Source: Patescibacteria group bacterium (GTDB lineage Bacteria; Patescibacteriota; UBA1384; XYA2-FULL-43-10; 1-14-0-10-43-13). Taken from it: a stretch of 64,000 nucleotides of DNA. The stretch is taken from the NCBI GenBank assembly GCA_041671645.1, contig JBAZBD010000001.1, positions 799,234-863,233 of the forward strand. The letters are read 5' to 3'. The notes below the pieces were generated by a model. The model did not search any database. It had not been told where the DNA came from and saw only the letters and a list, made by a program, of their open reading frames with translations. Shown one piece after another: positions 3,688 through 62,413 of the stretch. The position numbers and the translations under genes were made by a program. Every line of letters begins with the position of its first letter. The first letter of the stretch is position 1.

Positions 3688-3713
3688 AAACACCTCACAT
3701 ATGTGAGGTGTTT
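3688..3713. repeat. Palindromic hairpin element AAACACCTCACATATGTGAGGTGTTT, copy a of a terminator-like repeat family.
   Basis: Perfect 12-bp arms. It lies 8 nt downstream of the minus-strand VIT gene stop. Near-identical copies are at 33159..33184 and 62388..62413. Confidence 0.6.
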
Positions 3714-16300: not shown

Positions 16301-19300
16301 GAAGTCTTGCTGGTATCCCACCTGGAGAGGAATTGGAGGGCAAAGTTGGCCGTGACGGTGATATCAACGGTGACATTGGTGTCGGTGCGGGCGGCAGTAG
16401 TATTGGCATCTGACCAGTCTACGAAATAATAGCCAGCTGCTGGGGTAGCGGTAACTTGTGAACCGTTGGCACCGTAGTCAACAGTCTGTGGCGATGTACC
16501 AACAACTGAACCATTCGATCCAGCGTTGTAGGTCAAGGTGTAGGTGTTGATAGCAAATGTAGCCGTAACTGAAATATTATCAGCAACATTGAGATCAGTT
16601 CGAGCCGCGGTCATGACATCATCAGACCAAGATACGAAATGGTAGTTAGCAGCAGGAGTAGCGGTAACTTCTGAGCCGCTTGAGCCATGGTCAACAGTCT
16701 GGGGGGTGGTACCGACAATCGAGCCATTGGCGCCAGCAGAGTAAGTAAGAGTGTGGGTGTCGATGGCAAAACTAGCAGTCACTGCGATATCACCTGCTAC
16801 GTTTGAGTCAGTACGAGCAGCAGTCATGACGTCATCAGACCAAGATACGAAATGGTAGTTCGCAGCAGGAGTAGCGGTAACTTCTGAGCCGCTAGCGCCG
16901 TGATCAATGGTCTGAGGGGTGGTACCGACAATCGAGCCATTGGCGCCAGCAGAGTAAGCCAAAGTATGAGTGTCGATTGCGAAACTAGCCGTTGTCGTAA
17001 TGTTGGCCGTGACGTTGGTATCCGTTCGGACTGGATTAGTAGAGTCATTGTCTGACCATTTGACAAAATGGTAATTGGCGGCAGGAGTGGCAACAACTTC
17101 TGAGCCGCTTGACCCATGGTCAACAGTCTGAGGAGAGCTGCCGATAACTGATCCGTTGGCGCCAGAGTTATAGGTAAGGGTGTAGACGGCCAAGGTTGAT
17201 TGGTCGGCAGTAGCAGAATAAGCAGTCGCAACACTATCGCCATTTGTAGCGGCCACGGAGAAAGTATATAGGGTGTTGGCGGTCAGACCGGTCACGGTCT
17301 TGCTCGAACCCCAGGTCGCATAAGCTTGCCAGACAGCTGAATCGCCGAGTGTGCTGTTGGCTTGAACATATTTCGTCGTAGCGCCGTAGACTACTTTGAT
17401 GGCATAAGTCGTATTGGATGGATTGGAGTTTTGGGCAATCAGGACTGGAATAGTAGTCGAAGTGACTGTACCAAAAGTTGGAGTGCCAGGTACATTAGCC
17501 AAAGTATACTTGGCAGCAGTAGAGCTAAATGCTGTTTCGGTATTGTCACCATTTCTAGCTTTGACTTTGTAGGTGTATTGAACATTTGGACTCAAGGAAA
17601 CATTGTCAAATCCAGAAGCACCACCCCAGGCGGCATAGTTTTGCCAGTCTTCAGAAGCTTGATTGGTGCCGTCTGCATGTTTGACATAATTCCAAGTACT
17701 TCCGCCATCAGCTGAGACAGCGATAGCATAAGTAGTAGAAGAGTTGTCAGTAAGTTTGATATTGATGACGCTAGCAGATGAAGCAGCTAGGGTTGGAGCG
17801 TCAGGGGCGGCGGCAAGGGTGTATTTGGGCGCAGCATATGCTGGAGCAGAATCGCCAATTGCATTGGTGGCGATCACCTTGGCACAATATTGAGTATTGA
17901 TTGATTTACTCGTAATAGCTTGGCTAATAGCGCCAGCGGCAGTCGTATAATCAGGAGTGCCAGAGTAACTGGCGGCCGAACAATCAGCATTGCCAGCGGC
18001 AGTATAGACCTTGAAGCCGGTCTCGTTGCTGGAAGCGTCAGTCCAAGTCACTGTAAATCCAGTGGTAGTCAGCGTCCCAATGGCAACTGTGTTTGGCTCC
18101 GTTGGGGCAACGTCGACTGTGGTCTGAGCAGTTCCGCTAGATAGAGCGGTCTCAACATTGTCTCCGTTCTTGGCTTTAACTTTATAGGTATATTCTGTGT
18201 TGGCGGTGAGGCCAGTATTGGTAACTCCAGAAGCGCCACCCCAGGTAGTATAATCTTGCCAGACAGCAGAAGTATCTGAAGAACCGTCCGCCTGGACATA
18301 TTTGCTCAGAGTATCATTGTAAACGGCATAATTGGTGCCGGCTGGGTTGGAATTCTGGTTAATTTTGACGGTTAGAGAGCTCGAGGAAGTGGCGTCTACT
18401 GTCGGAGCAGAAGGTACATTAGCCAAAGTATACTTGGCAGCAGTAGAGCTAAATGCTGTTTCGGTATTGTCACCATTTCTAGCTTTGACTTTGTAGGTGT
18501 ATTGAACATTTGGACTCAAGGAAACATTGTCAAATCCAGAAGCACCACCCCAGGCGGCATAGTTTTGCCAGTCTTCAGAAGCTTGATTGGTGCCGTCTGC
18601 ATGTTTGACATAATTCCAAGTACTTCCGCCATCAGCTGAGACAGCGATAGCATAAGTAGTAGAAGAGTTGTCAGTAAGTTTGATATTGATGACGCTAGCA
18701 GATGAAGCAGCTAGGGTTGGAGCGTCAGGGGCGGCGGCAAGGGTGTATTTGGAAATCGAGTCGGTAGCTGCTGTGGTCTCTCCGTCTCCGTTTCTAGCCT
18801 GAGCGGTGTAGGAATACTGAGTATTTGGCGAAAGGCCAGTATTGGTAAGGGTATTGTTGTTGGTATTCCAAGAAGCAAAACCCGTGCCAGTTCCGGCAGA
18901 TTTAGTAATGTAGAGGCCAGATGAGCCAACGGACAAGTTGGTAAATGTGCCGGTAGCAGAGACTTGGATCGAATCAGTAGCTATCGTCCCGAAGGTGATA
19001 CCGGAAGCGGCCTCGATAGAGGAGTAGGCAGAAGCAGTAGAGGAAGCCTGGCCCAAAACTCCGTTGTAAGCACGGACGTAATTTGTATATTGAGTATTGG
19101 CTGAGAGTGAACCTTGATCATACGCCGAAGCGGATGGGCTCCCAACGTCTGAATCATCGGAGCTCTTTAGAAGTCTGTAGCTAGAGGCACCTGCGACATC
19201 AGCCCAATCCCAAGATATTTGAGAAGCGGTGTTGGCGGTGTGAGTCAAGCTTGCAGGCTGTGCCGGAGCGGAAGTAGCAGTGCCAGCAGAAGAGGCAGAA

Positions 19301-22300
19301 GTTTCGGTGGTGTCACCGTTTCGAGCCAGCGCTTTGACGGAATACAACGTGTTTGAGGTAAGATTTTTCAGGTAATTGACTGTGCCAGTTTCCCAATTTA
19401 CCTTGGTCTTCCAAACCTTTGATGCGCCGCAAGTGCCATCGCCCTGTAGCCATGAGTCTGGAGTTGCGTTGCAGGAAAGAGCAAACTCAGTCCCGGCTGG
19501 ATTTGAGTTGACATTGATTACCGCGGCCATATTATTTCCGCTGGCTGCGCTCCAATCGTAAGCAGTGACAGTGGGGGCATCTGGCGTATTAGCCAAAGTA
19601 TATTTCGGTGCAGCAAAGGCTGGATCAGAATCCCCGTCTGCATTGGTAGCGATCACTTTGGCGCAATATTGAGTATTGATAGTTTTGCCCGTAATGGCCT
19701 GGCTGGTAGCATCTGCGGCAGTGGTATAGTCTGGGGTGCCAGAATACGAAGCGGCGGAACAATCAGCGTTACCAGCGGCAGTGAAGACTTTGAATCCGGT
19801 CTCGTCGCTGGAATTATCAGTCCAAGTAACGGTAAATAAAGTAGAGTCAATCGAAGTGATCGCCACAGTGCTAGCCGCATTTGGCGGAGCCGAAGCGAAC
19901 CAGTTTACATTATTACCGGCGCTCGTAACGTTTGAACCTGAGTTATCGGTATAGATCGCAGTCGCGTTTGCATTTATCGAATCTTTCACTGAAGCATAAG
20001 AGATTGCTCTTGTGCTCTGAGGATCTATAGACCATGTAGAGCCATCAGAGGAAGAATTTAGAGAGATAACTCGACCAGAAGCTCCAGAAACCGTCAGCGC
20101 ACCTGCGATTGTTTGAGTTTTACTTGCCTCAAATTTCAAGGTTTTTGTTGTTGTCGCCCCAGGCTGTATTGTCACAGCGCTAAAAGTGGTATCGCCTGAA
20201 ATATCCTGGATGGAGCTATCTCCTCCATTGAAGACGACCGTGCCAGAATTGTGGGTGAAAGTACCAGCAGTGTGAGTGAAATCATTCGCAACGCTCATAG
20301 TGGTTGACGGAGCAGCGAAGGTACCGTCAGTTTGGATAAAACTACCCACAGTAACTGCATTTGCGCCAGAAGTGAAAGTGCCAGAGGAAACCGTTAGATT
20401 GTTCGAGGCGACAAGAGCGTCAGAAAGCGTAATTGATCCTGTCCCGCCCTGGCTCAAAACAATTTTTTTGTATGCATAGCCAGTAAAGTCACCAAGAGAA
20501 TACGGCGCTAGTCCTGTGTTTATCGTTGCAGCAACAACATTGGTTGATCCATTTATTTTGGAAACTGAATTTGCGCTGGAATTAGTAACCCAGACAAAAC
20601 CGCTTGCATCCACCGCAACACCGCAAGGAGCGCTTCCAACTGTGACTGTCGCAGCTACAGCATTTGTGGCTGTATTTATCTTGGTTACAGTATTTGTACC
20701 TAAATTTGAGACCCAAACAAAGCCGTTGGCATCAGCCGCAACGCCAAATGCATTCGTCCCCGCAGAAACAGTCGCTACAACTGTGTTTGTTGTTGGATTG
20801 ATTTTCGAAACATCACTTGTGCCATAATTCGGAACCCAGACAAAACCATTCAGATCAACTGCGACACCAGCAGGCTGTGTACCGACCGTAATAGTTGCCA
20901 CAACTGTGTCAGTCGTAGCATTGATTTTTGAAACTGTATTGCTATTAAAGTTTGCAACCCAGACAAAACCACTTGAATCGGCGGCGATTCCATAAGCACG
21001 CGCACCGACGTTCACTGTTGCTGCAATTGCATTTGTTGTCGGATTTATCTTGTACGCTACATTGTTCGTACCGCTAGCTACCCAAACAAACCCATTAGAA
21101 TCTATGGCCACGCCATAGGGATCAGAACCAATCGTAATCGAAGCATCTACGCTATTAGTGGAAGCATTAATTTTTGTTAAAGTACCGTTTGATCTGTTGG
21201 TTTGCCAAATAAACCCAGAATTATCAACAGCCACGCCAAATTCGGCCGCTCCGATTGTATGTGTAGTCACTGCGTTTGAAGATGTATCAATTTTTGTCGT
21301 CGTGGTTGCGCCAGAATTTGCAATCCACGCATAAGGAGTTGAAATCGTACCGGCCTGACCAGCCACAGTAATATTGTAAAAATCGTTGCTATTGCTAGCG
21401 ACTGTAGCAGCTGCTGTACCGTTGAAGTTTACCGTTGAAGTCCCTTTGGTGAATGTGCCACCAGTATTATTCCAGCTTCCACCAATATTTATTGTGTAAT
21501 TTCCCGCACTTAGAGTTCCCTCAGCAAGATTCAACGCTCCATCATCATTCAAATCCGCGCCGAGAGTAACCGTATCCGTGTAGCCAGTATTGATAGAGAG
21601 AGATTTGATGTGAGCAGTGAAACCGCTATCGAGAGTTGACGCCTTGGTCGAGGTGGAGTCAAAGACGACATCGCAAGCAGCATCAGGTACAGTATCAAGA
21701 GTCCAGTTCTCAGCTGTACTCCAATTGTTCCCTGTACCGCCGCCATCCCAAACACAACCAGGCAAAACGTCCCAATTGGTCACATTCACACCCTTGGTCC
21801 AGTTGGTCGGGCTTATTGGATTGGCCGCGTTATTCTTCGAATTTGAGACTGAAACATAGTCGACAGTCCACTGATTATCCATGCTCGTGCTTGGAGTGAT
21901 TTCCCATTGTGCACCAGTACCGTTGCGTTGAAGTGTTAACAAATTATCAGCGATACCGGTAGCGGTCCACTGGCCAGTCACAGTCTGATTCGTGCCTGGA
22001 TTGAAGCTGATCGTCCGAGCAGTCGAAGTCGTCATTGTAAAATTGTAAAATTCAGTCGAGCCGCCAACGACTTGGGCCAAGCTCGCAGAATTGAGCTCTA
22101 CGGTACCGTAGTTGTTGCTGAAAGTACCTCCGTCCCGAATAAAATCACCACTAACTTTCATGGTGCCGTTTGGAGCTGAAAAAGTACCAGTGTCCTGAGC
22201 AAAGTGTTTTGTCTCTACGTTGTAGCCATAAGCATTGAATGTATTCGCGAGCGTAATATTCAGCGAATGCTCGACAAGTAAAGTGTCCTGAGTCACGACT

Positions 22301-25300
22301 GTACCGTTAGCAGAGTTTGCAGATAATTGGTAGAACTGGTTGCTGCCGCATTTAACATAGTATGTGTTGGCAGAGTTGATATTGTTGATCCATACCGCGC
22401 CGTCGTTATTCACAAACGTACCACCGCCAGACATGTCGAAGAGGAAGTCAGTGGCAACATCATTGGCGTCAAGTGTTAGGACCTGGGCAGGCGCGTTAAA
22501 TGTACCGCCATAGAGATAAAAATTGTAACTTTTAATTGTAACGGTGGCTGTGTTGCTGTTGAAGGTGCCCGAGATAATAGTAGTAGAATAACCGTTCAAG
22601 ACCAAGGTTGAAGAATTGGAATTAAAAGTGCCGCCGTTTAAGTATAGTCCGCCTACTGTCACAGTGCCTGTACCAGCATTGAAAACAGCACCAGACTCAA
22701 CATAGAAGCTGCCCATGTCGCTAGAAGTAAATGTGGCAGTGGCATTGATTGTACCGTAAATATATGCGCCAGAAGAACCAACACTTGCACCTGGGGTATA
22801 AACTTTTGAAGCCGGGATATGAAGAGAATAACTAGTCGAGAGTACATTGGAACCATCGACACTGAACAAGATTTTTCCATTCGCGTCAGAACAATTATCA
22901 GCAGTCGCAAGAATAGTATTGGTCATCGGGCCAGAGTCTTCATAGGTGAGAGAAACCAGGTAAGAGTAAAGCGACAAGCCCGTGATGTCGCTAGAGCCGG
23001 CCGCAACAGTCACAATATTACCAGCTGAATAATTGCCATCTTCGAAGAAAATTGTAATAACTGTTCCGGCGGTAACACCGCCGGCGACGAAATCAAAAGC
23101 GCCATTCCCATCGGTTGCCATTGTCTGTTTTGCACCACCATTAACCGAGGCAGAAACATTTTGCCCAGAGCCAACATTCCCCTGCCCAATTCCCTGATAT
23201 GCAGTACCCGAGATATGACTGCCGAGCCAGTTGGTATTATTACTACCAGATGCAGTTGAGTTGGTCGGTGCGATTGGTCGAGAATTTAGATTGTTTGAAT
23301 CAGAATAAGTAACACGATCGACTGTCCAAGGCGACATCCCACTGGTGTTCGCATTTATCTTCCATTGGCCCGAGCCTGCAGTGCCGTTGAGCTTCATGAC
23401 AATGTTATTCCCAGCCGCGCCCTGTATTGTGAGCGCTCCAGAAATAGTCTGGGTTGAGTCTGCTGCAAAAGATAATGTCTTGCCAGCAGTGGCACAAGTA
23501 AAGCTAGAAGGAGCGTTGTCGCCAGAGATCACCGATTCTTGAGCAGTATCAAATGTCACGACATAAGGCGAGAAAGTGCCGCCAGCCGTCGTAGTCAGAT
23601 TGCGTCCGATTGTAATATCGCTACCTGAGAAATAAGCGCCTGAGCTGATAGCCGCATCGCGCCCAACAACAACTGCATAAGACGGCGATAAATAGCCGTT
23701 CGTCACAGAAAAGTCATTCGATACCGTAAAGCCAGCACTATAACCTACTGTCCCATCACCAGTGTTTGCGTAAATATAATTATAGATAGGCGGAACGTTT
23801 GTAAACGTATATGGATTGTAACTGCTATTAGCAGGAATTGAGCCAATTTTGAAAGTACCATTGGCGTTATTGAAAGTACCGCCAGAGATATTCCAAGTAT
23901 AATCACTATAATATCCGTTTGAGTCAGTTGTAATAGTCAATGTGCCCGAAGTAGATGTAAATGTACCACCGCTCATCGCAAATGATGCGTTTAGCATAGT
24001 AATCGTAGCAGTGTCACCATTAAATGTAGCACCGGTGCTAACCGTAATTTGATAATTTGATAAGGTCAAATTTGAAGTGTTAGCATTGAAAGTACCGCCA
24101 GAGAAAGTAGGAGTAGCCAAGATGTGAGTACCGCTACCAGCATTGAACTCGCCGCCAGCCTGATAAAATGAGCTGGAAAGAGTGAGGTTATTGGCTTCCA
24201 TCTCAACAATGCCATCGTTATACATACCATAGGCGTTTACATTGCCGCCAGGAGTAAACATCGTATACTGAGTGACATAAAGATCATACATAGTACTGAG
24301 AGTCGAACCAGAGACCGAGAAATCAGAGAAACAGCCGCAGTCATCAGCAATCGCTAAATCTGCGTTTGTAATAGCCCCTGCGGTATAGTCACTGTAAAGA
24401 GTGGTCTTGTATCGATACATATTGAGACCAGTTTTGTCTATGGCGGATTCAGGCAAATAGACGATACTGCCGGAATTGTAGCTCGGATCATTATCAATAA
24501 AGATGGTGACTGGTTTGCCAGCAACAAGCTCGACCCCGCTAAAGGAAAAAGTACCACCGGAGCCAGTGACGCCCGACATCTTTCCGCCACCGTTTGAGGT
24601 AATGGAAATCGGGATATCAGCGCCCAAAACGCTGCCGCCGATACCATCGTAAATTGTGCCGGAAATCGTATTGCCGCCAGAATATGTAACTGTTAATTTT
24701 GGATCGAGTGCCGTACCATCATTTTCTGCAAAGTAGCCATAGAAGTAGACACTATCATAATCGGCATTTATGGTTGGCTGACTATCTGCAGCATCAGCAG
24801 TGATTCTAAGACCAAGCTTCGTAACACCAGATGTACTAATAGCTGCTAGACCGCTTGCATTCATCGCGAAATCGTTGTATCCCATATCGTTGTAACTGGC
24901 GTACGGAATCGCAGATGCAAATGCAGTTGTTCCGAAAGTGTCGTAATCCGATGCTTGAAGCGAAGTGTTGCTAGAAGGGTTCGAGGAATACAGACCCAAA
25001 CTCGAATTCCAACCCGAAGGGTCACCCATCTTGTATGCGCCATATACGGAAAAATTGGCAGCTGAGATAGTCGCGGTGTTTGGGATGCTAGAAGTATCAA
25101 AGAGAAACGCACTTCTTGAGACGTAAGCCCAAGCAGCGTTGTTGCCAGCGGCGATTGCGGCCATATCACCGCTTGTTCCGTCATCAGCAGCGCTATATCC
25201 GCCAGACCTTATGGAAGCCCAGTCCCAATTGCTCCTACTGCTGTAAGTGTACCCATCAACAGACGTGACTTCAGTATGAGTATTTGGATAATAAATAACA

Positions 25301-27273
25301 TCAGTATCAATCTTCATGTCAGACTTTGGCGCTGTCTCTTGCCAGACAAAGCTTGAATCCAAGCTGCCTTCGATCTTTTTGGCTTCGACTGCGACAACCT
25401 TGTCTTGGCCAGTCTCATCTTTGACGACTTCACCAGTTGAGGCATTTACATCAAAAGCTTCTGGCTTGTCTCTGAATTTGAGATCGTCTTTGACGACGAC
25501 AGTCTTGTTTTCTTTGGTCTCTGGGTCGGTGACGACAACACTTCCTTCTTTCCCGCCATCAGTCTTGGTCACATTCCACTGGAAATTCTTCGGCGCGTCT
25601 TCGCCCTTGATTGTCTTCCAGAGACGTACACCATACTCAGAGATGTCAAATTCAAATTTGAGGTTACCGTCATCGGTTGTGACCTGGCTATCCTCAGCCA
25701 AAATCTGTGGTGCAATCCATTTGGAAAGCGCGTTTCTGGTATCTTCGGCCATCTTCTGGTCAGGAGTGTTGATATCGGCCCAAGCCACTTTGCTGTCAGT
25801 TCCCTTTGATTTTGATAAAACTGGATTGCCATCGACGTCTTTCAGGGTCACCGTATATTTGTCGCCAGTTTGTCGAGACTCGATTTCATAGCCAATCTTG
25901 TCTTTGAAAACTTTGACAGTAGAGGGCATCTGGTCAAAAAGCACATATTCGGGCGTATCGATGGAATGATTTGGGTTGATATCCTTCCAGCTTGAGTCAG
26001 CCTTGGCATAATCTTCTTTGTAGTGGACAAGGCCGGTATAGGACTCTAGAGTCTTGGTGCCGTTCTTGTTGTCGATTGTCTTGGTAGTCTCTGTGCGATC
26101 AGCGACAATCTCATTTGGATTGGCCAAAATCTGGTCAGTGCCGTTGTTTGAAATAGTAGTATTCTTCTGGCCCTCTTCTTTGGCGATGACAAATGAATAT
26201 TCCTGGCTCCATGGCGACCAAGCGCCAACAGAGTCCTGATAGCGAACGCGAGAGTAGTAGGTTCCTTCGGTGAGTAGAGTTGTTAGCTTGATATTTGTCA
26301 GTTCGTCTTTGGGCTCTGTCTTTGTCTGATCGAAGATCGGAGAAGCATAATCGCCAGATTTGGTCGAAATCTGCCACTCTGAAGCGTTTTGCGTGTCATT
26401 GTCGATATCAAGATAAGAGCTAGCGCTTAGGGTCTGAGTATTTCTAAACAAGCTTTTGTCAGCAGTGAACGAGAGACCGGTTGGTGTATTTGGAAGTCTA
26501 GAGTAGAGCAAGGTCAAAGAGTGCAAAACAGGCGAAAGACTAGCGTCGCCAGTCGAAAGGGTCAAGCGTATGTAGAGAGTCTCGGAATCGGCCATCTCAA
26601 GGACATCGCTCGAAAACAAAATGTTGTCAGTAGAAAATTCCTTTTTGACAGCACCGCCGTTGAGTACTTCGCTGGCCTCGATCGAAAGCCAATCGACAAA
26701 CTCACCCTTGGCCGGGGTGTAGGCCAAAATCGCGTTGCCAGATTCCTGGTACTGATTTTGTGTAATATCTGAGTCTAACTTCGCACTTTGGGAAAGAGAG
26801 AGAGAATTGGGGTTATCGGCTGTCGAAAGTCCAGAAATAGTCCAACTCTGCCAAGCTTCCTGTGTGCCCCAAGCCACTTGTGAAGAGGCGAAAGTGCGAA
26901 TGACGCTGGTAGCAAAAACGGAGGTGAAGATAAGGGCCACGATGCCAGACATGTAGCCGGAGAGTGAAACCCAGTGAATTGCAGAAGCAAACGGGCTCAT
27001 GTGCCACTTGTAGTACCATCTGAATTTCATCCGAAGATTGTTGTGGAGGGTGGCGAAGACTGGAAAAGTAACCTTGGTCGAACGCTGGATCAAAATGATT
27101 TCACGTTCAAGCTGAGCTTCCTTCTTTTGGAGCTCTTTTTGCTTCTCCGCGACAATCACCTCTTCTTTGGTGAGACCTTCAATCGCTGCCTTGTCCTGAG
27201 GCAACAAAGTGTACTTCTCCAAAGGTGCTTTTTTGGAAAAATGACTGCGGAAAAATTTGCGTAGGCCCTTCAA
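7390..27273 (-). CDS. Giant cell-surface protein (adhesin-like), 6,627 aa. From N to C it has a cytoplasmic coiled tail and TM signal-anchor, many FN3 domains, a YVTN 7-blade beta-propeller, WxGGG..NW beta-helix repeats, Listeria-Bacteroides repeats, DUF285 repeats and a C-terminal TM with CarbopepD_reg-like modules.
   Basis: Single uninterrupted ORF. TTG start at 27273 with an AGGAGG RBS 4 nt upstream. The TM MSGIVALIFTSVFATSVI sits about 115 aa from the start. Recognisable repeat classes are listed in the findings. Confidence 0.8.
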   Translation of the reverse strand: MKGLRKFFRSHFSKKAPLEKYTLLPQDKAAIEGLTKEEVIVAEKQKELQKKEAQLEREIILIQRSTKVTFPVFATLHNNLRMKFRWYYKWHMSPFASAIHWVSLSGYMSGIVALIFTSVFATSVIRTFASSQVAWGTQEAWQSWTISGLSTADNPNSLSLSQSAKLDSDITQNQYQESGNAILAYTPAKGEFVDWLSIEASEVLNGGAVKKEFSTDNILFSSDVLEMADSETLYIRLTLSTGDASLSPVLHSLTLLYSRLPNTPTGLSFTADKSLFRNTQTLSASSYLDIDNDTQNASEWQISTKSGDYASPIFDQTKTEPKDELTNIKLTTLLTEGTYYSRVRYQDSVGAWSPWSQEYSFVIAKEEGQKNTTISNNGTDQILANPNEIVADRTETTKTIDNKNGTKTLESYTGLVHYKEDYAKADSSWKDINPNHSIDTPEYVLFDQMPSTVKVFKDKIGYEIESRQTGDKYTVTLKDVDGNPVLSKSKGTDSKVAWADINTPDQKMAEDTRNALSKWIAPQILAEDSQVTTDDGNLKFEFDISEYGVRLWKTIKGEDAPKNFQWNVTKTDGGKEGSVVVTDPETKENKTVVVKDDLKFRDKPEAFDVNASTGEVVKDETGQDKVVAVEAKKIEGSLDSSFVWQETAPKSDMKIDTDVIYYPNTHTEVTSVDGYTYSSRSNWDWASIRSGGYSAADDGTSGDMAAIAAGNNAAWAYVSRSAFLFDTSSIPNTATISAANFSVYGAYKMGDPSGWNSSLGLYSSNPSSNTSLQASDYDTFGTTAFASAIPYASYNDMGYNDFAMNASGLAAISTSGVTKLGLRITADAADSQPTINADYDSVYFYGYFAENDGTALDPKLTVTYSGGNTISGTIYDGIGGSVLGADIPISITSNGGGKMSGVTGSGGTFSFSGVELVAGKPVTIFIDNDPSYNSGSIVYLPESAIDKTGLNMYRYKTTLYSDYTAGAITNADLAIADDCGCFSDFSVSGSTLSTMYDLYVTQYTMFTPGGNVNAYGMYNDGIVEMEANNLTLSSSFYQAGGEFNAGSGTHILATPTFSGGTFNANTSNLTLSNYQITVSTGATFNGDTATITMLNASFAMSGGTFTSTSGTLTITTDSNGYYSDYTWNISGGTFNNANGTFKIGSIPANSSYNPYTFTNVPPIYNYIYANTGDGTVGYSAGFTVSNDFSVTNGYLSPSYAVVVGRDAAISSGAYFSGSDITIGRNLTTTAGGTFSPYVVTFDTAQESVISGDNAPSSFTCATAGKTLSFAADSTQTISGALTIQGAAGNNIVMKLNGTAGSGQWKINANTSGMSPWTVDRVTYSDSNNLNSRPIAPTNSTASGSNNTNWLGSHISGTAYQGIGQGNVGSGQNVSASVNGGAKQTMATDGNGAFDFVAGGVTAGTVITIFFEDGNYSAGNIVTVAAGSSDITGLSLYSYLVSLTYEDSGPMTNTILATADNCSDANGKILFSVDGSNVLSTSYSLHIPASKVYTPGASVGSSGAYIYGTINATATFTSSDMGSFYVESGAVFNAGTGTVTVGGLYLNGGTFNSNSSTLVLNGYSTTIISGTFNSNTATVTIKSYNFYLYGGTFNAPAQVLTLDANDVATDFLFDMSGGGTFVNNDGAVWINNINSANTYYVKCGSNQFYQLSANSANGTVVTQDTLLVEHSLNITLANTFNAYGYNVETKHFAQDTGTFSAPNGTMKVSGDFIRDGGTFSNNYGTVELNSASLAQVVGGSTEFYNFTMTTSTARTISFNPGTNQTVTGQWTATGIADNLLTLQRNGTGAQWEITPSTSMDNQWTVDYVSVSNSKNNAANPISPTNWTKGVNVTNWDVLPGCVWDGGGTGNNWSTAENWTLDTVPDAACDVVFDSTSTKASTLDSGFTAHIKSLSINTGYTDTVTLGADLNDDGALNLAEGTLSAGNYTINIGGSWNNTGGTFTKGTSTVNFNGTAAATVASNSNDFYNITVAGQAGTISTPYAWIANSGATTTTKIDTSSNAVTTHTIGAAEFGVAVDNSGFIWQTNRSNGTLTKINASTNSVDASITIGSDPYGVAIDSNGFVWVASGTNNVAYKINPTTNAIAATVNVGARAYGIAADSSGFVWVANFNSNTVSKINATTDTVVATITVGTQPAGVAVDLNGFVWVPNYGTSDVSKINPTTNTVVATVSAGTNAFGVAADANGFVWVSNLGTNTVTKINTATNAVAATVTVGSAPCGVAVDASGFVWVTNSSANSVSKINGSTNVVAATINTGLAPYSLGDFTGYAYKKIVLSQGGTGSITLSDALVASNNLTVSSGTFTSGANAVTVGSFIQTDGTFAAPSTTMSVANDFTHTAGTFTHNSGTVVFNGGDSSIQDISGDTTFSAVTIQPGATTTKTLKFEASKTQTIAGALTVSGASGRVISLNSSSDGSTWSIDPQSTRAISYASVKDSINANATAIYTDNSGSNVTSAGNNVNWFASAPPNAASTVAITSIDSTLFTVTWTDNSSDETGFKVFTAAGNADCSAASYSGTPDYTTAADATSQAITGKTINTQYCAKVIATNADGDSDPAFAAPKYTLANTPDAPTVTAYDWSAASGNNMAAVINVNSNPAGTEFALSCNATPDSWLQGDGTCGASKVWKTKVNWETGTVNYLKNLTSNTLYSVKALARNGDTTETSASSAGTATSAPAQPASLTHTANTASQISWDWADVAGASSYRLLKSSDDSDVGSPSASAYDQGSLSANTQYTNYVRAYNGVLGQASSTASAYSSIEAASGITFGTIATDSIQVSATGTFTNLSVGSSGLYITKSAGTGTGFASWNTNNNTLTNTGLSPNTQYSYTAQARNGDGETTAATDSISKYTLAAAPDAPTLAASSASVINIKLTDNSSTTYAIAVSADGGSTWNYVKHADGTNQASEDWQNYAAWGGASGFDNVSLSPNVQYTYKVKARNGDNTETAFSSTAAKYTLANVPSAPTVDATSSSSLTVKINQNSNPAGTNYAVYNDTLSKYVQADGSSDTSAVWQDYTTWGGASGVTNTGLTANTEYTYKVKAKNGDNVETALSSGTAQTTVDVAPTEPNTVAIGTLTTTGFTVTWTDASSNETGFKVYTAAGNADCSAASYSGTPDYTTAAGAISQAITSKSINTQYCAKVIATNAIGDSAPAYAAPKYTLAAAPDAPTLAASSASVINIKLTDNSSTTYAIAVSADGGSTWNYVKHADGTNQASEDWQNYAAWGGASGFDNVSLSPNVQYTYKVKARNGDNTETAFSSTAAKYTLANVPGTPTFGTVTSTTIPVLIAQNSNPSNTTYAIKVVYGATTKYVQANSTLGDSAVWQAYATWGSSKTVTGLTANTLYTFSVAATNGDSVATAYSATADQSTLAVYTLTYNSGANGSVIGSSPQTVDHGSSGSEVVATPAANYHFVKWSDNDSTNPVRTDTNVTANITTTASFAIDTHTLAYSAGANGSIVGTTPQTIDHGASGSEVTATPAANYHFVSWSDDVMTAARTDSNVAGDIAVTASFAIDTHTLTYSAGANGSIVGTTPQTVDHGSSGSEVTATPAANYHFVSWSDDVMTAARTDLNVADNISVTATFAINTYTLTYNAGSNGSVVGTSPQTVDYGANGSQVTATPAAGYYFVDWSDANTTAARTDTNVTVDITVTANFALQFLSRWDTSKTSSGSSTATQIHLPLESTGTYNFIVDWGDSSTSTITTWNQAETTHTYASGGIYDLKIGGTITGFRFNNAGDKLKLSQISQFGPLRLGNSDGYFSGTKNLKITATDVLNTTGTTTMKNSFRDSGIDTVPSMNSWDMSAVTDMYCMFESSSLFNQDISSWNTGAVTSMYAMFYNAFVFNQNIGSWNTTNVINMAYMFESAWAFNQNISSWNTGSVTTMREMFWNNSAFNQNISNWNTGAVTNMNQMFYSAAAFNQNLASWNVVNVTDMTNMFSSSALSNANYSNILIGWSAQAVKSNVTLGAATKKYTLGAAADGRAHLVSAHTWTITDGGPSAFVLTYSAGSGGSIVGITPQTVDYGANGSEVTATPAANYHFTSWSDGVLTAARTETNVITDKSVTASFAIDTHTLTYSAGANGSVVGSTPQTVNYGANGSQVTATPAANYHFVSWSDDVMTAARTDSNVAGDIAVTASFALDAPASATGVTITPTSSTTFNVTWTDNSSIETGYKVYTADGNADCSAASYSGTPDTTTSADAVSQAIASKSVNTQYCAKVVATNSGGDSAPAYAAPKYTLANVPTFTTVAGDYSDADLWHLDTTINASANPAGTNYYIQYSTNDGAGAGNFYDPNAMAWQTETTYLFKKDKDNVDLAANTQYWMKVKAKNGDNVETIYTSTSVADVTPPAAPTALNITNICTTKATTTWTAATGADSYTVSYGTDTAATNIGTLTTATTSKQITGLSNTTTYYWKASATSTANGTGPYAAPSSFETSNCGVESPDDFAGSAASTTQINWTWSDITSEETGYKVEDSAHTSLSGNLDAGSTSYNETPLSANTGYTRHVNVYNGGGSQDSNSDTVYTLAAVPGQPTVTTLSSSRIRITVDKNGNPNANTRYAIAVSADAGSTWNYVKNADGTTQVSEDWQLYADWGGDSGFANTGLTKNTNYIYKIKARNGDNVATDFGATNNTTTLDNFSVTISSDGSGSGSLDQVTQIVDAGADVTTTATAAASSDFVSWTGCDTVATNICYLTDVSADRSITAVFTIKTYTITINEAGTGTGDLDQVTQDVNYGANLTVVATADISSTFTGWSGDATGTGDASFTNITANKTITATFTIKTYTITINTTGTGMGDLDQATQTVNYGANLTVVATPAASSTFAGWSGDATGTGDASFTNITANKTITATFTIRSYTVTISKAGNGTGDLDQSTQVVTYGANLTVAATPAVSSDFTGWSGDAAGTGSAALTNITADKTITATFTLKTYTISSSAGSNGAISPLGDNLANYGTSPEYTITPSDGYYISNVVVDGSAISGTLPSSYTFTNVTATHSISVSFAANNTCVWDGQAADDNWSSADNWTANIIPSATCDVIFDATSTKDSTLDASFTSHIKSLSVNTGYSGTISANTTLNDDGDFTLNAGTFTANAQTLNIAGSLTMTADPTAVFNEGTSTINFNPTTTGKTITTNGQVLGNLIFNGVDAVIDPNVTLLNNNISLLANHTLTAGWTFQDNVSAQSLTANAGTLVDGGKSVNIAGDIIIANKVGVLASTGVWTQSSSGNIANPDMHNTFGSLVAAGSGITSTMTAGVSVGLGSGSAGAFTVGPGTLMGIGKAVIVYSRSNDSVTVNNLTADSRLGVLAIYPQIADMTQKAITLPSNFATTFSFQQDPTGILTATGNFNFGNSNVIVAKDRTTTPAGYVDMSTHNLTCKNLTIGSTSTNEYATIPGYLKLGSGTTNIAGSLSHGNASNIGNKLDLGSGTINVGGNWDTSNITVTPGTSTVDLTGTGTLQSKGYAAAPYDFYNLKLAHNGNTTNAISSVTTSNVLYTYAGGTLNGDNRYAFRMYKSDGDAVVNTGANFTASTFLVYRPSSDVTVAGQNFGQGSVAYSGVTNDVAITLSSDVTTTRDIYAYSITTGKRTTLNAVDNNLTARNLYLAYPVYGVGTANLGSGTHEFTNGIFRYTGSTDDTNVLNLESSSVSIGGNIDFTGMTVDPGTSTITLNGIGGQTVAGSNTFNNLSATASAARTISFASDTTQTVNGALSLNGTSAGNITLSRSGGTGTDQWKIDPKGSTSTSYLSVENSKNLSSAVIDPSNSINLGNTNKWFPPTGTISFSSARTNQIDQTLTLSSSTGTQMKVSNSPDFSGSEYETFSTSKSWTLAAPTVDGMKTVYLKVKDIDGDESPTASASIILDITAPSAPTNLTALSASASVSLSWVNPTDTDFANVAIFRSTEADFTPNIGTNKIAYTTLSSTATYIDSNVTSGVTYYYKVEAIDSVDNYSAASNQASGKPDSDKPTAPGKPTVSGKTNTIDNIEYYNQPAVTLTWPAATDTNSGILNYSIKICKTSGCANANDALSLSTLTSPSNSLTLDGASALADGTYYVRVAANDNLGNQFAWSEELTFILDTVLPSSLEKVEAFDISDRVNSDYRVMLRWKASTDTGSGLLGYTIVKNGNNIISESTSGVQVDASGYASYVDTVTPNTQFNYSVFSFDLAKNQTASMAAEFQTTTVVDCSGCVILPPDEPGEGTLEISDVKATPSELMSEKAQATITWKTTVPATTQVKYGASAPYPYTTEVDTGLNSFHTVVLSDLDFNKTYHFAVISKDKYGQTAESTDFTFATKDIFKEQSVLDTVISNLSGTAMKVRDIIGQMQIVGVNNSGQPVVFGIPTSTTTPASTAAVAGIAIISAAAAPLANAATLFSLPEYIRSLIFALASLGTKKSRRKWGRVLEVGTYIPIAQAKLTLFKLTQTFPGSFSKRPVANTYSDIEGNFSFVADPGKYEIEVTKDLYEVSEAPGFYKKGQIIEVKSEQEGLIVPNILLSMNDKSIAKRFSFIEKIGVVEKVLVYVSLGFLIFGTVSILNSLAHSHRDTVTLVSALLFPLLWYVNIKSFVKVSPWGNVLDSVNHSGVSLALVRIMDGEGKRLIRTAVTNEKGKFSTVLPKGKYKLLVAKAGYKPSDATHMDAQEKLQTVSRKIEIDRDK
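12757..12850. repeat. About 95-bp perfect intragenic repeat, copy 1. It is the coding sequence of a 72-aa Listeria-Bacteroides-type repeat unit.
   Basis: The sequence gattgtaaatgtggccgtaattgtcttgttagctgtgatgtt.gtgaaagatgcgtcccctgtgccagttgcgtcgccagaccaacca recurs 216 bp later. Confidence 0.7.
12972..13068. repeat. About 95-bp perfect intragenic repeat, copy 2.
   Basis: See copy 1. The period is 216 bp, or 72 aa. Confidence 0.7.
17489..17828. repeat. 340-bp perfect intragenic duplication, copy 1. It encodes an FN3-type segment.
   Basis: The stretch from ggtacattagccaaagtatacttggcagcag to gcaagggtgtatttgg is identical base-for-base to 18413..18752. Confidence 0.85.
18413..18752. repeat. 340-bp perfect intragenic duplication, copy 2.
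   Basis: Identical to 17489..17828. The period is 924 bp (308 aa, roughly three FN3 domains). Confidence 0.85.
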
Positions 27274-56001: not shown

Positions 56002-56061
56002 ATTGATTTAGGATTTGAGAATACTATATCATAAACGAAGGGATTAATAAGGAATACCAAT

Positions 56062-56538
56062 ATGAAAAGCAAAAAAGTACAACCAGATACAACAATAGAA
56101 TCAGAGCAAAAGATTGCCGAGCTGACCCTTGGCTGGCAGAGAACTCAAGCTGATTTTCAGAATTTCCGACGCCAGGTCGAGTTAGATCGGCAGAAACTGC
56201 TCAAGACGGCTAGCGCCCAGGTGCTGGAAGATATTTTGCCGGTGTTGGACAACTTCCAGCTTGCGGCCAAGCACGCTCCGGCAGAATTGGAAAATAATAA
56301 TTGGGTTATCGGCATCAAACAGATCGAGAAACAGCTCGAAGGCATCCTGGCCAACGAGGGCTTGGTAAAAATAGAAACAATCGGCCAACAATTTAACCCA
56401 GAATTTCATGAAGCAATCGAGCATCTCTCCTCCGACAAACCAGAAAATGAAATTGTGGAAGAAGTTTCGTCTGGCTACACTTACGAGACCATCGTCCTCC
56501 GACCAGCAAAGGTAAAGGTCTCTTCAGGAAAACAATAA
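56062..56538 (+). CDS. grpE: Nucleotide exchange factor GrpE.
   Basis: Coiled-coil N-terminus, LEDILPVLDNFQLA and the C-terminal beta domain. Confidence 0.9.
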   Translation: MKSKKVQPDTTIESEQKIAELTLGWQRTQADFQNFRRQVELDRQKLLKTASAQVLEDILPVLDNFQLAAKHAPAELENNNWVIGIKQIEKQLEGILANEGLVKIETIGQQFNPEFHEAIEHLSSDKPENEIVEEVSSGYTYETIVLRPAKVKVSSGKQ

Positions 56539-56664
56539 GCCCTAATTTACAGAAGAACCAAAAAAGTCGGCCTAGCCGTCTTTTTTGATAGGGGGTCTTG
56601 ATCCGTCCTTCGTTAAAACTACGGAGGATCAACCCCTCCGTAGCTCCTGCGGAGCAAAGGGGGG

Positions 56665-56694
56665 TTGACAAAATGTAAAGTCTACTTTACATTT
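56665..56694 (+). promoter_or_regulatory. dnaK promoter (TTGACA-N17-TACATT) overlapped by a perfect 11-bp inverted repeat, AAATGTAAAGT-ct-ACTTTACATTT, a candidate heat-shock operator.
   Basis: Consensus -35 hexamer. The inverted repeat spans the spacer and the -10 element. It is neither CIRCE nor HAIR. Confidence 0.4.
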
Positions 56695-56727
56695 TAGATA
56701 GTATTATTTTATTAACAAGGAGTTCAT

Positions 56728-58632
56728 ATGTCCAAAATCATCGGTATCGACTTAGGTACCACCAACTCAGCTGTCGCTATTATGGAAGGTGGCGAAGCCA
56801 AGATTATCACTTCCTCAGAAGGCGGACGAACCGTCCCCTCAATCGTGACTGAGACCAAAAAGGGCGACCGATTAGTCGGTCAATTGGCCAAGAGACAAGC
56901 TGTCACAAATGCAGAAAACACTGTTTTCTCGATCAAACGTTTCATCGGTCGTAAGTTCGACGATGCTGACGCACAGGCAGATATCAAGAAAATGCCTTAT
57001 GGCGCCAAGAAGGCCTCTGATGGATCGATCCGAGTCAGCATGATCGGTCAAGAGTACAGCCCACAAGAAATCTCTGCCTTCATCTTGCAGAAATTAAAGA
57101 CCGATGCTGAGACCTATCTCGGCGAGAAAGTAACAGAAGCCGTCATTACTGTGCCTGCCTATTTTAATGATGCTCAGCGCCAAGCGACCAAAGATGCTGG
57201 CAAAATTGCAGGTCTCGAAGTCAAAAGAATTATCAACGAGCCGACCGCGGCCGCTCTTGCTTACGGACTAGACAAACAGAAGAATGAAAAAATCGCTGTT
57301 TACGACCTCGGTGGCGGAACATTTGATATTACCATTTTGGAGCTGGGCGATGGCGTTTTCGAAGTCAAAGCAACCAACGGTGACACTCATCTCGGCGGCG
57401 ACGACTTTGATCAGCGAATCATGGACTACATTATCGATGAGTTCAAGAAGGATCAGGGCGTCGATCTACACGCCGACAAAGCAGCAGTCCAAAGAGTCAA
57501 GGAAGCAGCCGAAAAAGCCAAAATTGAGCTCTCGACCGCTCTTGAGACTGAAATCAACCTACCTTTCATCACCGCTGATGCCTCCGGTCCAAAACATTTG
57601 ACCCTGACAATCAAACGCGCTGATCTCGAAAAAATGGTTGGCGAGTTGATCGAAAAGACGATGAAGCCATGCCAGAAGGTCTTGGACGACGCTAAGATGA
57701 AAAAAGAGGATATCAATGAAGTGATCCTGGTCGGTGGCATGACACGTATGCCAGCCGTTCGTGAGGCAGTCAAGAAATTCTGGGGCAAAGAGCCAAACCA
57801 TTCCGTCAATCCTGACGAGGCCGTCGCTATCGGTGCCGCTATTCAGGGCGGAGTCTTGGCTGGAGATGTCAAAGATTTGCTCCTGCTAGACGTGACTCCA
57901 CTCTCTCTTGGAATCGAAACTTTGGGCGGTGTCTCGACCAAATTGATCGAGCGCAATACTACTATCCCAACCAGCAAATCACAGATTTTCTCTACCGCAG
58001 CTGACAATCAAACTTCTGTAGAAATTCATGTCTTGCAGGGCGAGCGCGAAATGGCCGCCGACAACAAGACGCTTGGCCGATTCATGCTTGATGGCATTCC
58101 ACCTGCCCCACGCGGCATTCCACAGGTCGAAGTTTCCTTCGACATTGACGCCAACGGCATTGTGAATGTCAAAGCTACCGACAAAGCAACCAACAAAGAG
58201 CAGAGAATCACTATTACTGCTTCGAGCGGACTATCTGAATCTGAAATTGAAAGAATGAGAAAAGAAGCCGAAGAGCATGCTGACGAAGACAAGAAGAAAA
58301 AAGAGGCTGTCGAAGTCAAAAATATGGCTGACACATTGATCTATACTGCTGAAAAGACACTAAAAGACGCAGGAGACAAAGTTGATTCTAACTTGAAATC
58401 TGATGTCGAGCAGAAAATCCAAGCCTTGAAGGACGTCAAAGACAAAGATAATCTCGAAGAGATCAAGACCCAGACAGAATCTCTCAGCACTGCTCTGCAG
58501 GAAATTGGCAAGAAGATGTACGAACAGGCTGCCAAAGAGCAACCAAAAGCCGACGGTGCGAAGGAAGAGGAAAAGGCCGAAGAACCCAAAAATAATCCGC
58601 CAGCTGGCGGAGATGAGCCAAAAGCTGAATAA
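56728..58632 (+). CDS. dnaK: Molecular chaperone DnaK (Hsp70).
   Basis: [18 protein letters not shown] and the rest of the canonical Hsp70 sequence. The RBS is AAGGAG. Confidence 0.97.
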
Positions 58633-58748
58633 TTTGCTTCCATATTTGCCCTCTATTGCTTAGAGGGCAAGATGGAGTTAAAATTATAGAGATCTGGTTT
58701 TGTCCGATTTCAACTTAACATGGAGGGTCCCCTCAGGGGGAAAGTTTT

Positions 58749-59408
58749 GTGAATTTGTTTCGTAATCCTATCTTTATACTTTTCTTCGTCGTCGCCCTAA
58801 TCGTGTCGATCGTCTGGAGTTATATTTCGAACAAGAAAACTAATACTCCGGTCACGACCGAGACGACTGAGACGACAACAACAGACACACCCAAGGTGAC
58901 CAATCTGACAAACCTTGACCCTGTCGACTTCGACTCGACCTTGAAGGGATATCTCGATATCGCAGCCACTAAGTCAGCGGAGATCAACAAGGATTACAAG
59001 TTGGCCGATATCGAAGTAGAGATAGGCCAATCCCTCCAACCAGCCGACGCCACTATTCGATATGCGTACAATCTCGGGGCCACAGACACAAGCAATTGGA
59101 TAATTTCATTTGCCCAGGACACCGGCAGTTATGTTCGTTCGCTTATCCCAAGTGAGGATTATCTCGGCCACCCCAAGCAGATTGACACGACACTCTGGAA
59201 ATTTAATTACGTCACCGCTCTGCAATTGGCTGAGAAGAATGGCGGCCTCGAATACCGTGAGAAAAATTCTGACTTTTCCAGCGTCAAAATGAGTTTGAAA
59301 CATACTGGCGAAAAAGCCTGGCTCCTCTGGAGTGTGGAGTACAAAGGTACGACCAGCGGCCTAACTGTCCTAATCGACGCAAACTCAGGTGACAAAGTCA
59401 CTCAATAA
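58749..59408 (+). CDS. Membrane-anchored protein with PepSY-like repeats, 219 aa.
   Basis: GTG start. N-terminal TM and a Thr-rich linker. WLLWSVEYKGTTSGLTVLIDANSGDKV resembles the PepSY motif. Confidence 0.45.
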   Translation: MNLFRNPIFILFFVVALIVSIVWSYISNKKTNTPVTTETTETTTTDTPKVTNLTNLDPVDFDSTLKGYLDIAATKSAEINKDYKLADIEVEIGQSLQPADATIRYAYNLGATDTSNWIISFAQDTGSYVRSLIPSEDYLGHPKQIDTTLWKFNYVTALQLAEKNGGLEYREKNSDFSSVKMSLKHTGEKAWLLWSVEYKGTTSGLTVLIDANSGDKVTQ

Positions 59409-59493
59409 AGCAGTAATATATAAGCTTATAAGTCCGATAAGCGCTCTGCTACTTGCTTACCAACTTAGGATTTATAGCTAATTGCTTATTTTT

Positions 59494-60144
59494 ATGTCAA
59501 CAGATTATTACAAAACTTTGGGTGTCTCAAAATCGGCCTCGGCCGAGGAAATCAAAAAAGCTTATCGAAAGCTTGCTTTGGAGCACCATCCTGATCGAGG
59601 CGGCGGCAACAATTCCGACGCCAAGTTCAAGGAGGTCAACGAGGCCTATCAGGTCCTCTCTGACCCCGAGAAACGCAAGACATACGATCAGTTTGGCGAT
59701 GCCGCCTTCAAAAACGGTGGAGCTGGGGCTGGAGGCTTTGGCGGATATCGACAGGGCGGATTCCAGGGCGACTTTTCTGATTTTGACTTCTCTGGATTCG
59801 GATTTGGTGGAGGAATTGGAGATATTTTTGAAGACTTTTTCGGCGCCCAGATGTCTCAGGTCCAAGCCGAATTACAAATTTCCCCTGCTCAGGCCGTACT
59901 TGGGGATAAAGTTTCCGTCCAGATCAATGGCGAGAATCTGGAGTTCTCTCTTCCCGCAGGCACAAACGATGGCACTTCATTCCGTTTTCAGGGCAAGGGT
60001 CGTGCAACACGAAATGGCCGCAAAGGAGATCTCATCCTAACAATCAAAATTGTAATGCCAAAACACCTGACAAAGGAACAGCAAGAACTCTGGCAACGTC
60101 TCCGCGACGAAGAATCCAAGAAAAAAGGTTGGTGGGGCGCTTAG
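59494..60144 (+). CDS. dnaJ: J-domain co-chaperone (DnaJ/CbpA-like, lacking the zinc-finger domain).
   Basis: DYYKTLGV...HPDR J-domain, a G/F-rich region and a single C-terminal DnaJ_C-like domain. No CxxCxGxG repeats are present. The ATG at 59494 is preferred over the TTG at 59482. Confidence 0.75.
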
Positions 60145-62387: not shown

Positions 62388-62413
62388 AAACGCCTCACAT
62401 ATGTGAGGCGTTT
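62388..62413. repeat. Palindromic hairpin element AAACGCCTCACATATGTGAGGCGTTT, copy c of the repeat family.
   Basis: Differs from copy a at one base pair (G-C versus A-T). It lies downstream of the minus-strand gene ending at 62451. Confidence 0.6.

Follow-up and report, generated by a model that had tools for sequence, protein, structure and literature searches.

The window analysed here, a stretch of 64 kb of DNA from a member of the Patescibacteria, carries a dnaK gene whose promoter is overlapped by a perfect palindrome. This palindrome is read, with a probability of roughly 0.72, as an operator at which a dimeric CylR2-like repressor of the XRE family occludes the dnaK promoter, with the regulator in related lineages likely being a protein in which a helix-turn-helix (HTH) domain is fused to an Hsp20 domain. 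The site covers the -10 hexamer and the spacer of a near-consensus promoter and is therefore read as the operator of a repressor. An initial annotation made from the sequence of the window had proposed a dimeric-repressor operator at this place, a proposal that at the sequence level is supported by the conservation of the site, the uncompensated deviations in its arms and its tight link to CylR2-like HTH genes. The further suggestion that it represents an undescribed heat-shock control element is in keeping with its conservation at dnaK, groES and HTH-Hsp20 genes in part of the Patescibacteria, also called the Candidate Phyla Radiation (CPR), where the candidate regulon comprises dnaK, groES(-groEL) and the gene of the regulator itself, with clpB and ftsH possibly as further members. 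No description of the operator, of a CPR chaperone regulon or of the HTH-Hsp20 fusion as its probable regulator was found in the searchable literature.

The dnaK promoter-operator and its conservation

The elements of the grpE-dnaK region, in window coordinates, are as follows.
56062-56538, + strand: grpE, 158 amino acids (aa), Pfam GrpE with E = 3.9e-41
56559-56587, + strand: terminator-like hairpin at the end of grpE, CAAAAAAGTCGGC cta GCCGTCTTTTTTG and then a run of T, its 13-nucleotide (nt) arms 92% complementary
56591-56664, + strand: G+C-rich structured spacer with overlapping hairpin arms, lying 5′ of the dnaK -35 hexamer
56665-56670, + strand: -35 hexamer TTGACA of the dnaK promoter, from the promoter scan
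56670-56695, no strand: operator, a perfect 12+2+12 palindrome AAAATGTAAAGT-CT-ACTTTACATTTT, from the repeat finder
56688-56693, + strand: -10 hexamer TACATT within the right arm of the operator, from the promoter scan
56717-56722, + strand: AAGGAG, the Shine-Dalgarno sequence of dnaK; the leader around it is short, A+T-rich and predicted to have little structure
56728-58632, + strand: dnaK, 634 aa, Pfam HSP70 with E = 3.6e-266, the gene that the operator would control

The grpE-dnaK spacer is 189 nt long and holds a dnaK promoter of the sigma-70 type made up of TTGACA, a 17-nt spacer and TACATT, which scored 10/12 in the promoter scan. The TTGACA hexamer named in the initial annotation is present, and the palindrome is indeed perfect with arms of 12 nt (56670-56681 and 56684-56695, with 2 nt between them) rather than the 11 bp first given, while the 24-nt promoter spacer described there was in fact the length of the palindrome, the -10 hexamer lying inside its right arm. 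From the usual distance between a -10 hexamer and the start of transcription, dnaK transcription is predicted to begin near 56700, placing the operator at approximately -31 to -6 relative to the predicted start, with a dnaK leader of 27 nt that includes the Shine-Dalgarno sequence. A dimer bound over this span would block the -10 hexamer and the spacer, excluding RNA polymerase.

The conserved core of the operator is ATGTAAAGT-NN-ACTTTACAT. Allowing three or fewer mismatches, the 24-mer of the palindrome has one match in the 64 kb and none in 100 shuffles of it. No further copy was found in the window, even with four mismatches or as single half-sites, the half-site octamer TGTAAAGT occurring nowhere else in it, and sequence and half-site searches found no copy in the promoter region of grpE itself (56002-56061).

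The conservation of the site was followed in 80 metagenomic loci fetched by GrpE alignment and in a genome scan, with one genome per species, for TGTAAAGT-NN-ACTTTACA, which gave at least 120 loci. The nearest named relatives of the window GrpE are Berkelbacteria. The motif lies 5′ of dnaK in 12 of the 80 GrpE-anchored loci, with 0-2 mismatches over 18 core positions; the GrpE proteins of these organisms share only 40-65% identity with that of the window. The genome scan added dnaK sites in at least four more CPR genomes. In total TTGACA-aa-ATGTAAAGT-NN-ACTTTACAwT stands ahead of dnaK in at least 16 loci besides the window, all from distant Patescibacteria, with the motif 7-181 nt from the start codon. 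Close relatives often have grpE and dnaK separated by a tRNA gene or some other gene, and it is dnaK, not grpE, that the motif accompanies. The initial annotation had proposed copies upstream of groES/groEL or clpB as a way to define a regulon; groES is preceded by the promoter-operator in at least two Saccharibacteria (L136 and L198; Cpn10, E = 1e-29 to 1e-31). With copies at dnaK, groES and HTH-Hsp20 genes, the absence of other copies and of conservation that had been named as the mark of an accidental palindrome was not what was found.

Alignment of 24 promoter-operators on the motif gave the consensus cTTGACA-aa-ATGTAAAGT-aT-ACTTTACA-wT, the two central bases being variable. The TTGACA of the -35 region is kept in most of them, its distance to the palindrome shifting by 1-2 bases, and the -10 hexamer of the relatives reads TACAAT, TACATT or TACACT at the matching position. 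The left arm, which is not read by polymerase, is conserved equally with the right arm, and deviations affecting one arm (in L007, L018, L026 and L063) have no compensation in the other. Co-variation between the arms had been suggested as something to look for in the dnaK upstream regions; its absence together with the conserved left arm is what would be expected of a protein-binding site and argues against an RNA or DNA hairpin. Across phyla the exact 18-mer is usually extended to ATGTAAAGT-NN-ACTTTACAT, both flanking bases being present in 66 of 123 listed sites and one of them in a further 45.

Individual loci carry features of their own. Two dnaK promoters, those of L020 (near 1750) and L021 (near 3483), have a third half-site, CTTTACAAT, some 12 nt downstream of the palindrome, possibly as an auxiliary site for cooperative binding. 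In L111 the dnaK start codon follows the -10 hexamer by 7-8 nt, implying a leaderless dnaK mRNA in one lineage. A contig assigned to a Sphaerochaetaceae metagenome-assembled genome (MAG) has a full CPR-style promoter-operator (L084, 7155-7239) followed by a leaderless open reading frame (ORF) that starts MRTEINRLRKEK and is truncated at the contig end; the contig may belong to the CPR and have been binned with a spirochaete, or the system may be present outside the CPR.

CylR2-like proteins and the HTH-Hsp20 fusion

An HTH profile was run over the listed loci (at least 120), with ORFs accepted at E ≤ 1e-10. CylR2-like HTH ORFs proved to be tightly clustered around the motif, with 59 of 66, from many phyla, lying within 700 nt of it in a zone that makes up 18% of the DNA (binomial p ~1e-35). 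The motif adjoins genes for XRE-type HTH proteins of about 70 aa in Firmicutes, Bacteroidetes, Chloroflexi, archaea and CPR, and these genes are often trailed by the gene for a small membrane protein.

The repressor CylR2 of Enterococcus faecalis acts as a homodimer at the cytolysin promoter, with the membrane protein CylR1 as its partner (PMC3709268). That promoter, read on a cytolysin plasmid, contains TTTTGTCAAGTG-T-CACTTGACAAAA, its half-sites being TGTCAAGT-N3-ACTTGACA, written out TGTCAAGT-GTC-ACTTGACA. CylR2 is said, on the basis of Rumpel et al. 2004, to bind exactly this promoter repeat. The cyl half-site TGTCAAGT differs by one base from the operator half-site TGTAAAGT and is itself found in one arm of two dnaK operators (L016 and L059). 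The window conforms to the CylR2-type pattern of a half-site TGTNAAGT over a core promoter, having TGTAAAGT-CT-ACTTTACA across the spacer and the -10 hexamer. Common to the CylR2 system and the one proposed here is a small XRE-type HTH protein acting as a homodimer to repress from an inverted repeat within the promoter. In contrast, the 8-nt half-sites of cyl are 3 nt apart, as against 2 nt in the dnaK operator, CylR2 has no Hsp20 domain and the controlled genes are a toxin operon under a quorum signal rather than chaperone genes.

The fusion is a protein of about 230 aa that starts with an HTH_3 domain and has a complete HSP20 module in its C-terminal part, first seen in a Berkelbacteria locus (L110) and a Saccharibacteria locus (L188). 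The solved structures nearest to its HTH are a PbsX-family regulator (9k3w) and then CylR2 (E = 1e-8). An AlphaFold model shows a confident HTH at residues 8-65, a disordered linker at 71-94, a helix at 102-113 and an alpha-crystallin domain at 125-216, the last matching solved small heat-shock proteins. In the alignment most members also keep the C-terminal I/V-x-I/V motif, by which small heat-shock proteins dock neighbouring subunits. The family comprises about 88 clusters at 90% identity, and a profile search over 1.84 billion representatives recovered some 55-75 full-length members. It is restricted to the CPR, with the sources naming only Patescibacteria, Berkelbacteria and WS2 and L188 adding a Saccharibacteria MAG, and the clusters are annotated at source just as 'Hsp20 family protein'.

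The promoter-operator precedes all eight of the distinct fusion genes that were read (L110, L188, L202, L205, L207, L208, L209 and L210), and in five of these (L110, L202, L205, L208 and L210) the ATG follows the -10 hexamer by 7-8 nt, pointing to leaderless mRNAs. The fusion promoters and those of dnaK and groES are built alike, with TTGACA 2-3 nt before the palindrome (9 in L207) and the -10 hexamer in the right arm. Since the fusion gene has the same promoter-operator layout as the chaperone genes, negative autoregulation would be expected. In L202 clpB comes after the fusion gene and a metallophosphoesterase gene, all three lying on one strand and no terminator being detected among them, and in L209 a site with three mismatches overlaps a promoter approximately 370 nt upstream of ftsH. 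Of the plain hsp20 genes, also considered as members of the regulon, one (P0220, L212) was examined and carries CIRCE-like repeats, not the motif.

A different arrangement is seen in Paceibacteria and relatives (L115, L118, L157, L161, L172 and L185), in which an operon combines a gene for a 70-aa CylR2-like HTH protein, a gene for a membrane protein of about 130 aa, the same palindrome and a gene for a secreted thioredoxin-like protein, with a CcdA/DsbD-like protein also encoded in at least L118, L157, L172 and L185. The place that TTGACA has in the dnaK promoters is taken here by the box ATCCACA, 4-6 nt ahead of the palindrome. Such an operon looks like a two-part switch of the CylR1/CylR2 kind for envelope thiol-redox genes. 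A start codon 7-8 nt after the -10 hexamer, implying a leaderless mRNA, is also seen in L085.

The candidate circuit and alternative readings

The fusion of about 230 aa from related CPR lineages is most likely the regulator that acts at the operator. At normal temperature the fusion repressor would occupy its operators, while under proteotoxic stress the Hsp20 part would be captured by unfolded proteins or altered in its oligomeric state, and this would pull the repressor from the DNA and so release the chaperone genes together with the fusion gene. Chaperone titration is known for HrcA, HspR and sigma-32, and the proposed sensing by Hsp20 would run parallel to these. The complete scheme of a heat-shock switch in one polypeptide, in which the fusion represses dnaK and groESL as well as its own gene, and perhaps also clpB and ftsH, is released under stress through its Hsp20 part and replaces HrcA/CIRCE, is put forward tentatively, its chances being judged somewhat below even.

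Several points weigh against repression by the fusion at the window dnaK. We infer repression from the position of the site only, and a preprint reports that a related regulator, GakR, acts positively and has an inverted repeat over the -10 hexamer, its deletion cutting expression six-fold (10.64898/2026.09.04.749385). An hmmsearch of all window ORFs found neither a fusion gene nor a CylR2-like HTH gene in the 64 kb, and none of the listed fusion clusters is on the 868-kb contig that bears the window grpE. No HTH gene stands beside dnaK or groES in the loci examined, and among these no single genome was seen to have both a fusion gene and a dnaK operator. The Paceibacteria operons, where the same motif accompanies a stand-alone 70-aa HTH protein and a membrane protein at thioredoxin-like genes, add a second type of regulator. 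The binder in the window genome may accordingly not be the fusion, another protein being conceivable.

The alternative given most weight accepts the operator and assigns it, in the window genome, to a stand-alone CylR2-like HTH protein of about 70 aa, perhaps working with a CylR1-like membrane protein, such that dnaK would answer to an envelope or extracellular signal. In keeping with this, pairs of HTH and membrane protein genes adjoin the motif across many phyla, with L085 and the thioredoxin operons of Paceibacteria as CPR examples, CylR2 itself has such a partner in CylR1 (PMC3709268) and the window contig has no listed fusion cluster. However, dnaK and groES share their extended promoter architecture with the fusion genes, whereas the thioredoxin operons have the ATCCACA box instead, a regulator with a chaperone domain is the better match for a chaperone regulon and the window has no HTH-membrane protein pair. 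This alternative is therefore considered unlikely, at something like one chance in five. That the palindrome is instead the site of an activator, either of the MerR type acting in the spacer or resembling GakR, is much less probable still. Its location between the -35 and -10 hexamers and the behaviour of GakR (10.64898/2026.09.04.749385) would fit an activator, but the promoter is already near consensus with an optimal 17-nt spacer, the -10 hexamer itself is within the right arm, CylR2 is described as a repressor (PMC3709268) and the leaderless fusion gene with the same arrangement fits negative autoregulation. The spacer is also at odds with MerR-type activation in particular, which depends on over-long spacers of 19-20 nt.

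The initial annotation had further proposed that hairpins upstream of the promoter form an attenuator-like or thermosensor-like set of alternative structures. The arms exist and overlap as described, with GGGGGTCTTGATCC (56591-56604) and GGATCAACCCCTCC (56626-56639) being 79% complementary and CTACGGAGG (56619-56627) and CCTCCGTAG (56635-56643) 100% complementary, and by the repeat finder the two pairings share bases and are mutually exclusive. The spacer folds better than shuffled sequences, with a z-score of -2.6 for the structured part alone and -3.7 with the terminator-like hairpin, which is present in both the minimum free energy and the centroid fold and is missed by a simple terminator scan because its G+C core has just four uninterrupted pairs. 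The hairpins at 56591-56643, alone or joined by the palindrome folded as RNA, nevertheless have very little in their favour beyond this as an attenuator or RNA thermosensor for dnaK, as they lie 5′ of the -35 hexamer and beyond the terminator-like hairpin of grpE and so fall outside the dnaK mRNA made from the promoter at 56665-56693. Folding of the spacer at different temperatures, which had been suggested as a check, gave the same minimum free energy structure at all temperatures between 20 and 50 °C, and the dnaK ribosome-binding site kept a predicted unpaired probability of 0.49-0.54 from 20 to 42 °C, with flat values in the read-through transcript also. The spacer has no Rfam match and the hairpin sequence is unique in the window rather than a dispersed repeat. 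The closest GrpE relatives (L002-L015) mostly have no dnaK after grpE, such that no alignment of the spacer is possible; relatives lack this spacer, yet the palindrome travels with dnaK, its arms kept in sequence with no compensatory changes. The hairpins are read as an insulator or as the structured 3′ terminus of the grpE transcript, and not as a sensor. Least probable of all is a chance feature of an A+T-rich promoter without function, for which the single copy in the window would speak; against it stand the empty shuffles, the conservation of the site at dnaK, groES and fusion genes across deeply diverged lineages and the retention of a left arm that has no role for polymerase.

The Patescibacteria are a very large group whose members have tiny genomes with few transcription factors and are almost all uncultured, and to our knowledge almost nothing is known of their gene regulation. 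The conserved promoter-operator at dnaK, groES and the fusion gene provides a concrete and testable regulon, with a candidate stress sensor, a single protein that would combine DNA binding with the function of a chaperone. The promoter-operator further offers a native promoter, probably stress-inducible, for the emerging genetic tools of Saccharibacteria, and assigns an operator sequence to a widespread and barely studied subfamily of CylR2-like proteins of about 70 aa. Were the Hsp20 part the sensor, this would be a simple case of chaperone titration built into a repressor, and a one-polypeptide switch would join sigma-32, HrcA, HspR, CtsR and RheA as a further class of heat-shock regulator in bacteria, standing in for HrcA/CIRCE in the reduced genomes of these lineages. 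Control of chaperone genes by a repressor and its operator is itself already known, as is CylR2 as the relative of the DNA-binding domain.

Known regulators and further observations

No match to CIRCE with four or fewer mismatches or to HAIR with two or fewer was found in the window, which also has no hrcA, hspR or XRE-type HTH gene and no HrcA domain in any of its large ORFs; the initial annotation was right that the palindrome is neither of these elements and that no hrcA or hspR gene is nearby. At the GrpE-anchored loci, 18 have CIRCE (L019-L077, including a weak match with four mismatches in L031), 12 have the motif (L007-L063) and none has both. CIRCE sits upstream of the gene just before grpE, and both of the gene products tested (L033 and L027) are HrcA. 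The two systems are thus mutually exclusive at the grpE/dnaK loci of relatives, which suggests that one replaced the other in evolution, and in the motif-bearing lineages the site stands where other bacteria have HrcA and CIRCE. Like the proposed system, HrcA/CIRCE couples a repressor to an inverted-repeat operator at dnaK and groESL promoters with chaperone-linked sensing, taking the same place in the circuit, and it is present in the more distant relatives of the window grpE. Unlike the palindrome, CIRCE is a 9-N9-9 repeat, TTAGCACTC-N9-GAGTGCTAA, bound by another protein family. The hrcA gene is usually the first of an hrcA-grpE-dnaK operon, while upstream of the window grpE there is a divergent comEC-like gene and not hrcA.

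HspR represses dnaK operons through an inverted repeat, its activity depending on the chaperone DnaK. It resembles the proposed regulator as a dnaK-operon repressor with an inverted-repeat operator and differs in being of the MerR family and in recognising HAIR (CTTGAGT-N7-ACTCAAG). Whereas hspR normally lies inside the dnaK operon, that of the window has no regulator, with a membrane-anchored protein and a short DnaJ encoded downstream. RheA of Streptomyces albus is a dedicated, autoregulated repressor tied to hsp18 in which the repressor is itself the sensor. The RheA regulator and its small heat-shock protein are encoded by separate divergent genes, unlike the single polypeptide of the CPR family, the operator sequence differs and the CPR regulon reaches to dnaK and groES.

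The palindrome core also fits the TyrR box of Gammaproteobacteria (TGTAAA-N6-TTTACA) letter for letter. TyrR is, however, a large protein of the enhancer-binding type from Proteobacteria, and no TyrR-like gene was found in the window. Conservation of the site described here extends into the N6 (GT..AC) and outwards (A...T), and the genes linked to it encode small XRE HTH proteins; both point to XRE HTH proteins rather than to TyrR, the resemblance to the TyrR box being formal. Several palindrome variants per genome occur in Pseudomonadota MAGs (L082, L088, L104, L106, L108, L114, L116, L137, L145 and L183), with longer arms of the type CCAAAATGTAAAGTCGACTTTACATTTTGG, a core that fits the TyrR-box pattern and no HTH gene nearby. 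These multi-copy matches may be of the TyrR-box kind, and may form a separate regulon or a dispersed palindromic repeat.

The gene order around the site is a divergent comEC-like gene, grpE, the spacer, dnaK, a gene for a membrane-anchored protein of 219 aa and a short dnaJ. A terminator-like hairpin follows dnaK (58728-58740), and is itself followed by the 219-aa ORF (58749-59408), whose Thr-rich product has no Pfam match. This ORF between dnaK and dnaJ was considered as a regulator within the dnaK operon and rejected, its membrane-anchored, Thr-rich product having no DNA-binding domain. The window DnaJ has 220 aa, with a Pfam J domain and C-terminal domain and no zinc-finger domain reported, the features downstream of dnaK together spanning 58728-60144.

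Elsewhere in the window two near-identical perfect palindromes, AAAC[A/G]CCTCACATATGTGAGG[T/C]GTTT, are found 58 kb apart (3688-3713 and 62388-62413), both intergenic and at the 3′ ends of genes; they could be copies of one terminator hairpin or binding sites for a different regulator. The minus strand of 7390-27273 is taken up by a single ORF of 6627 aa, giant proteins being frequent in CPR genomes.

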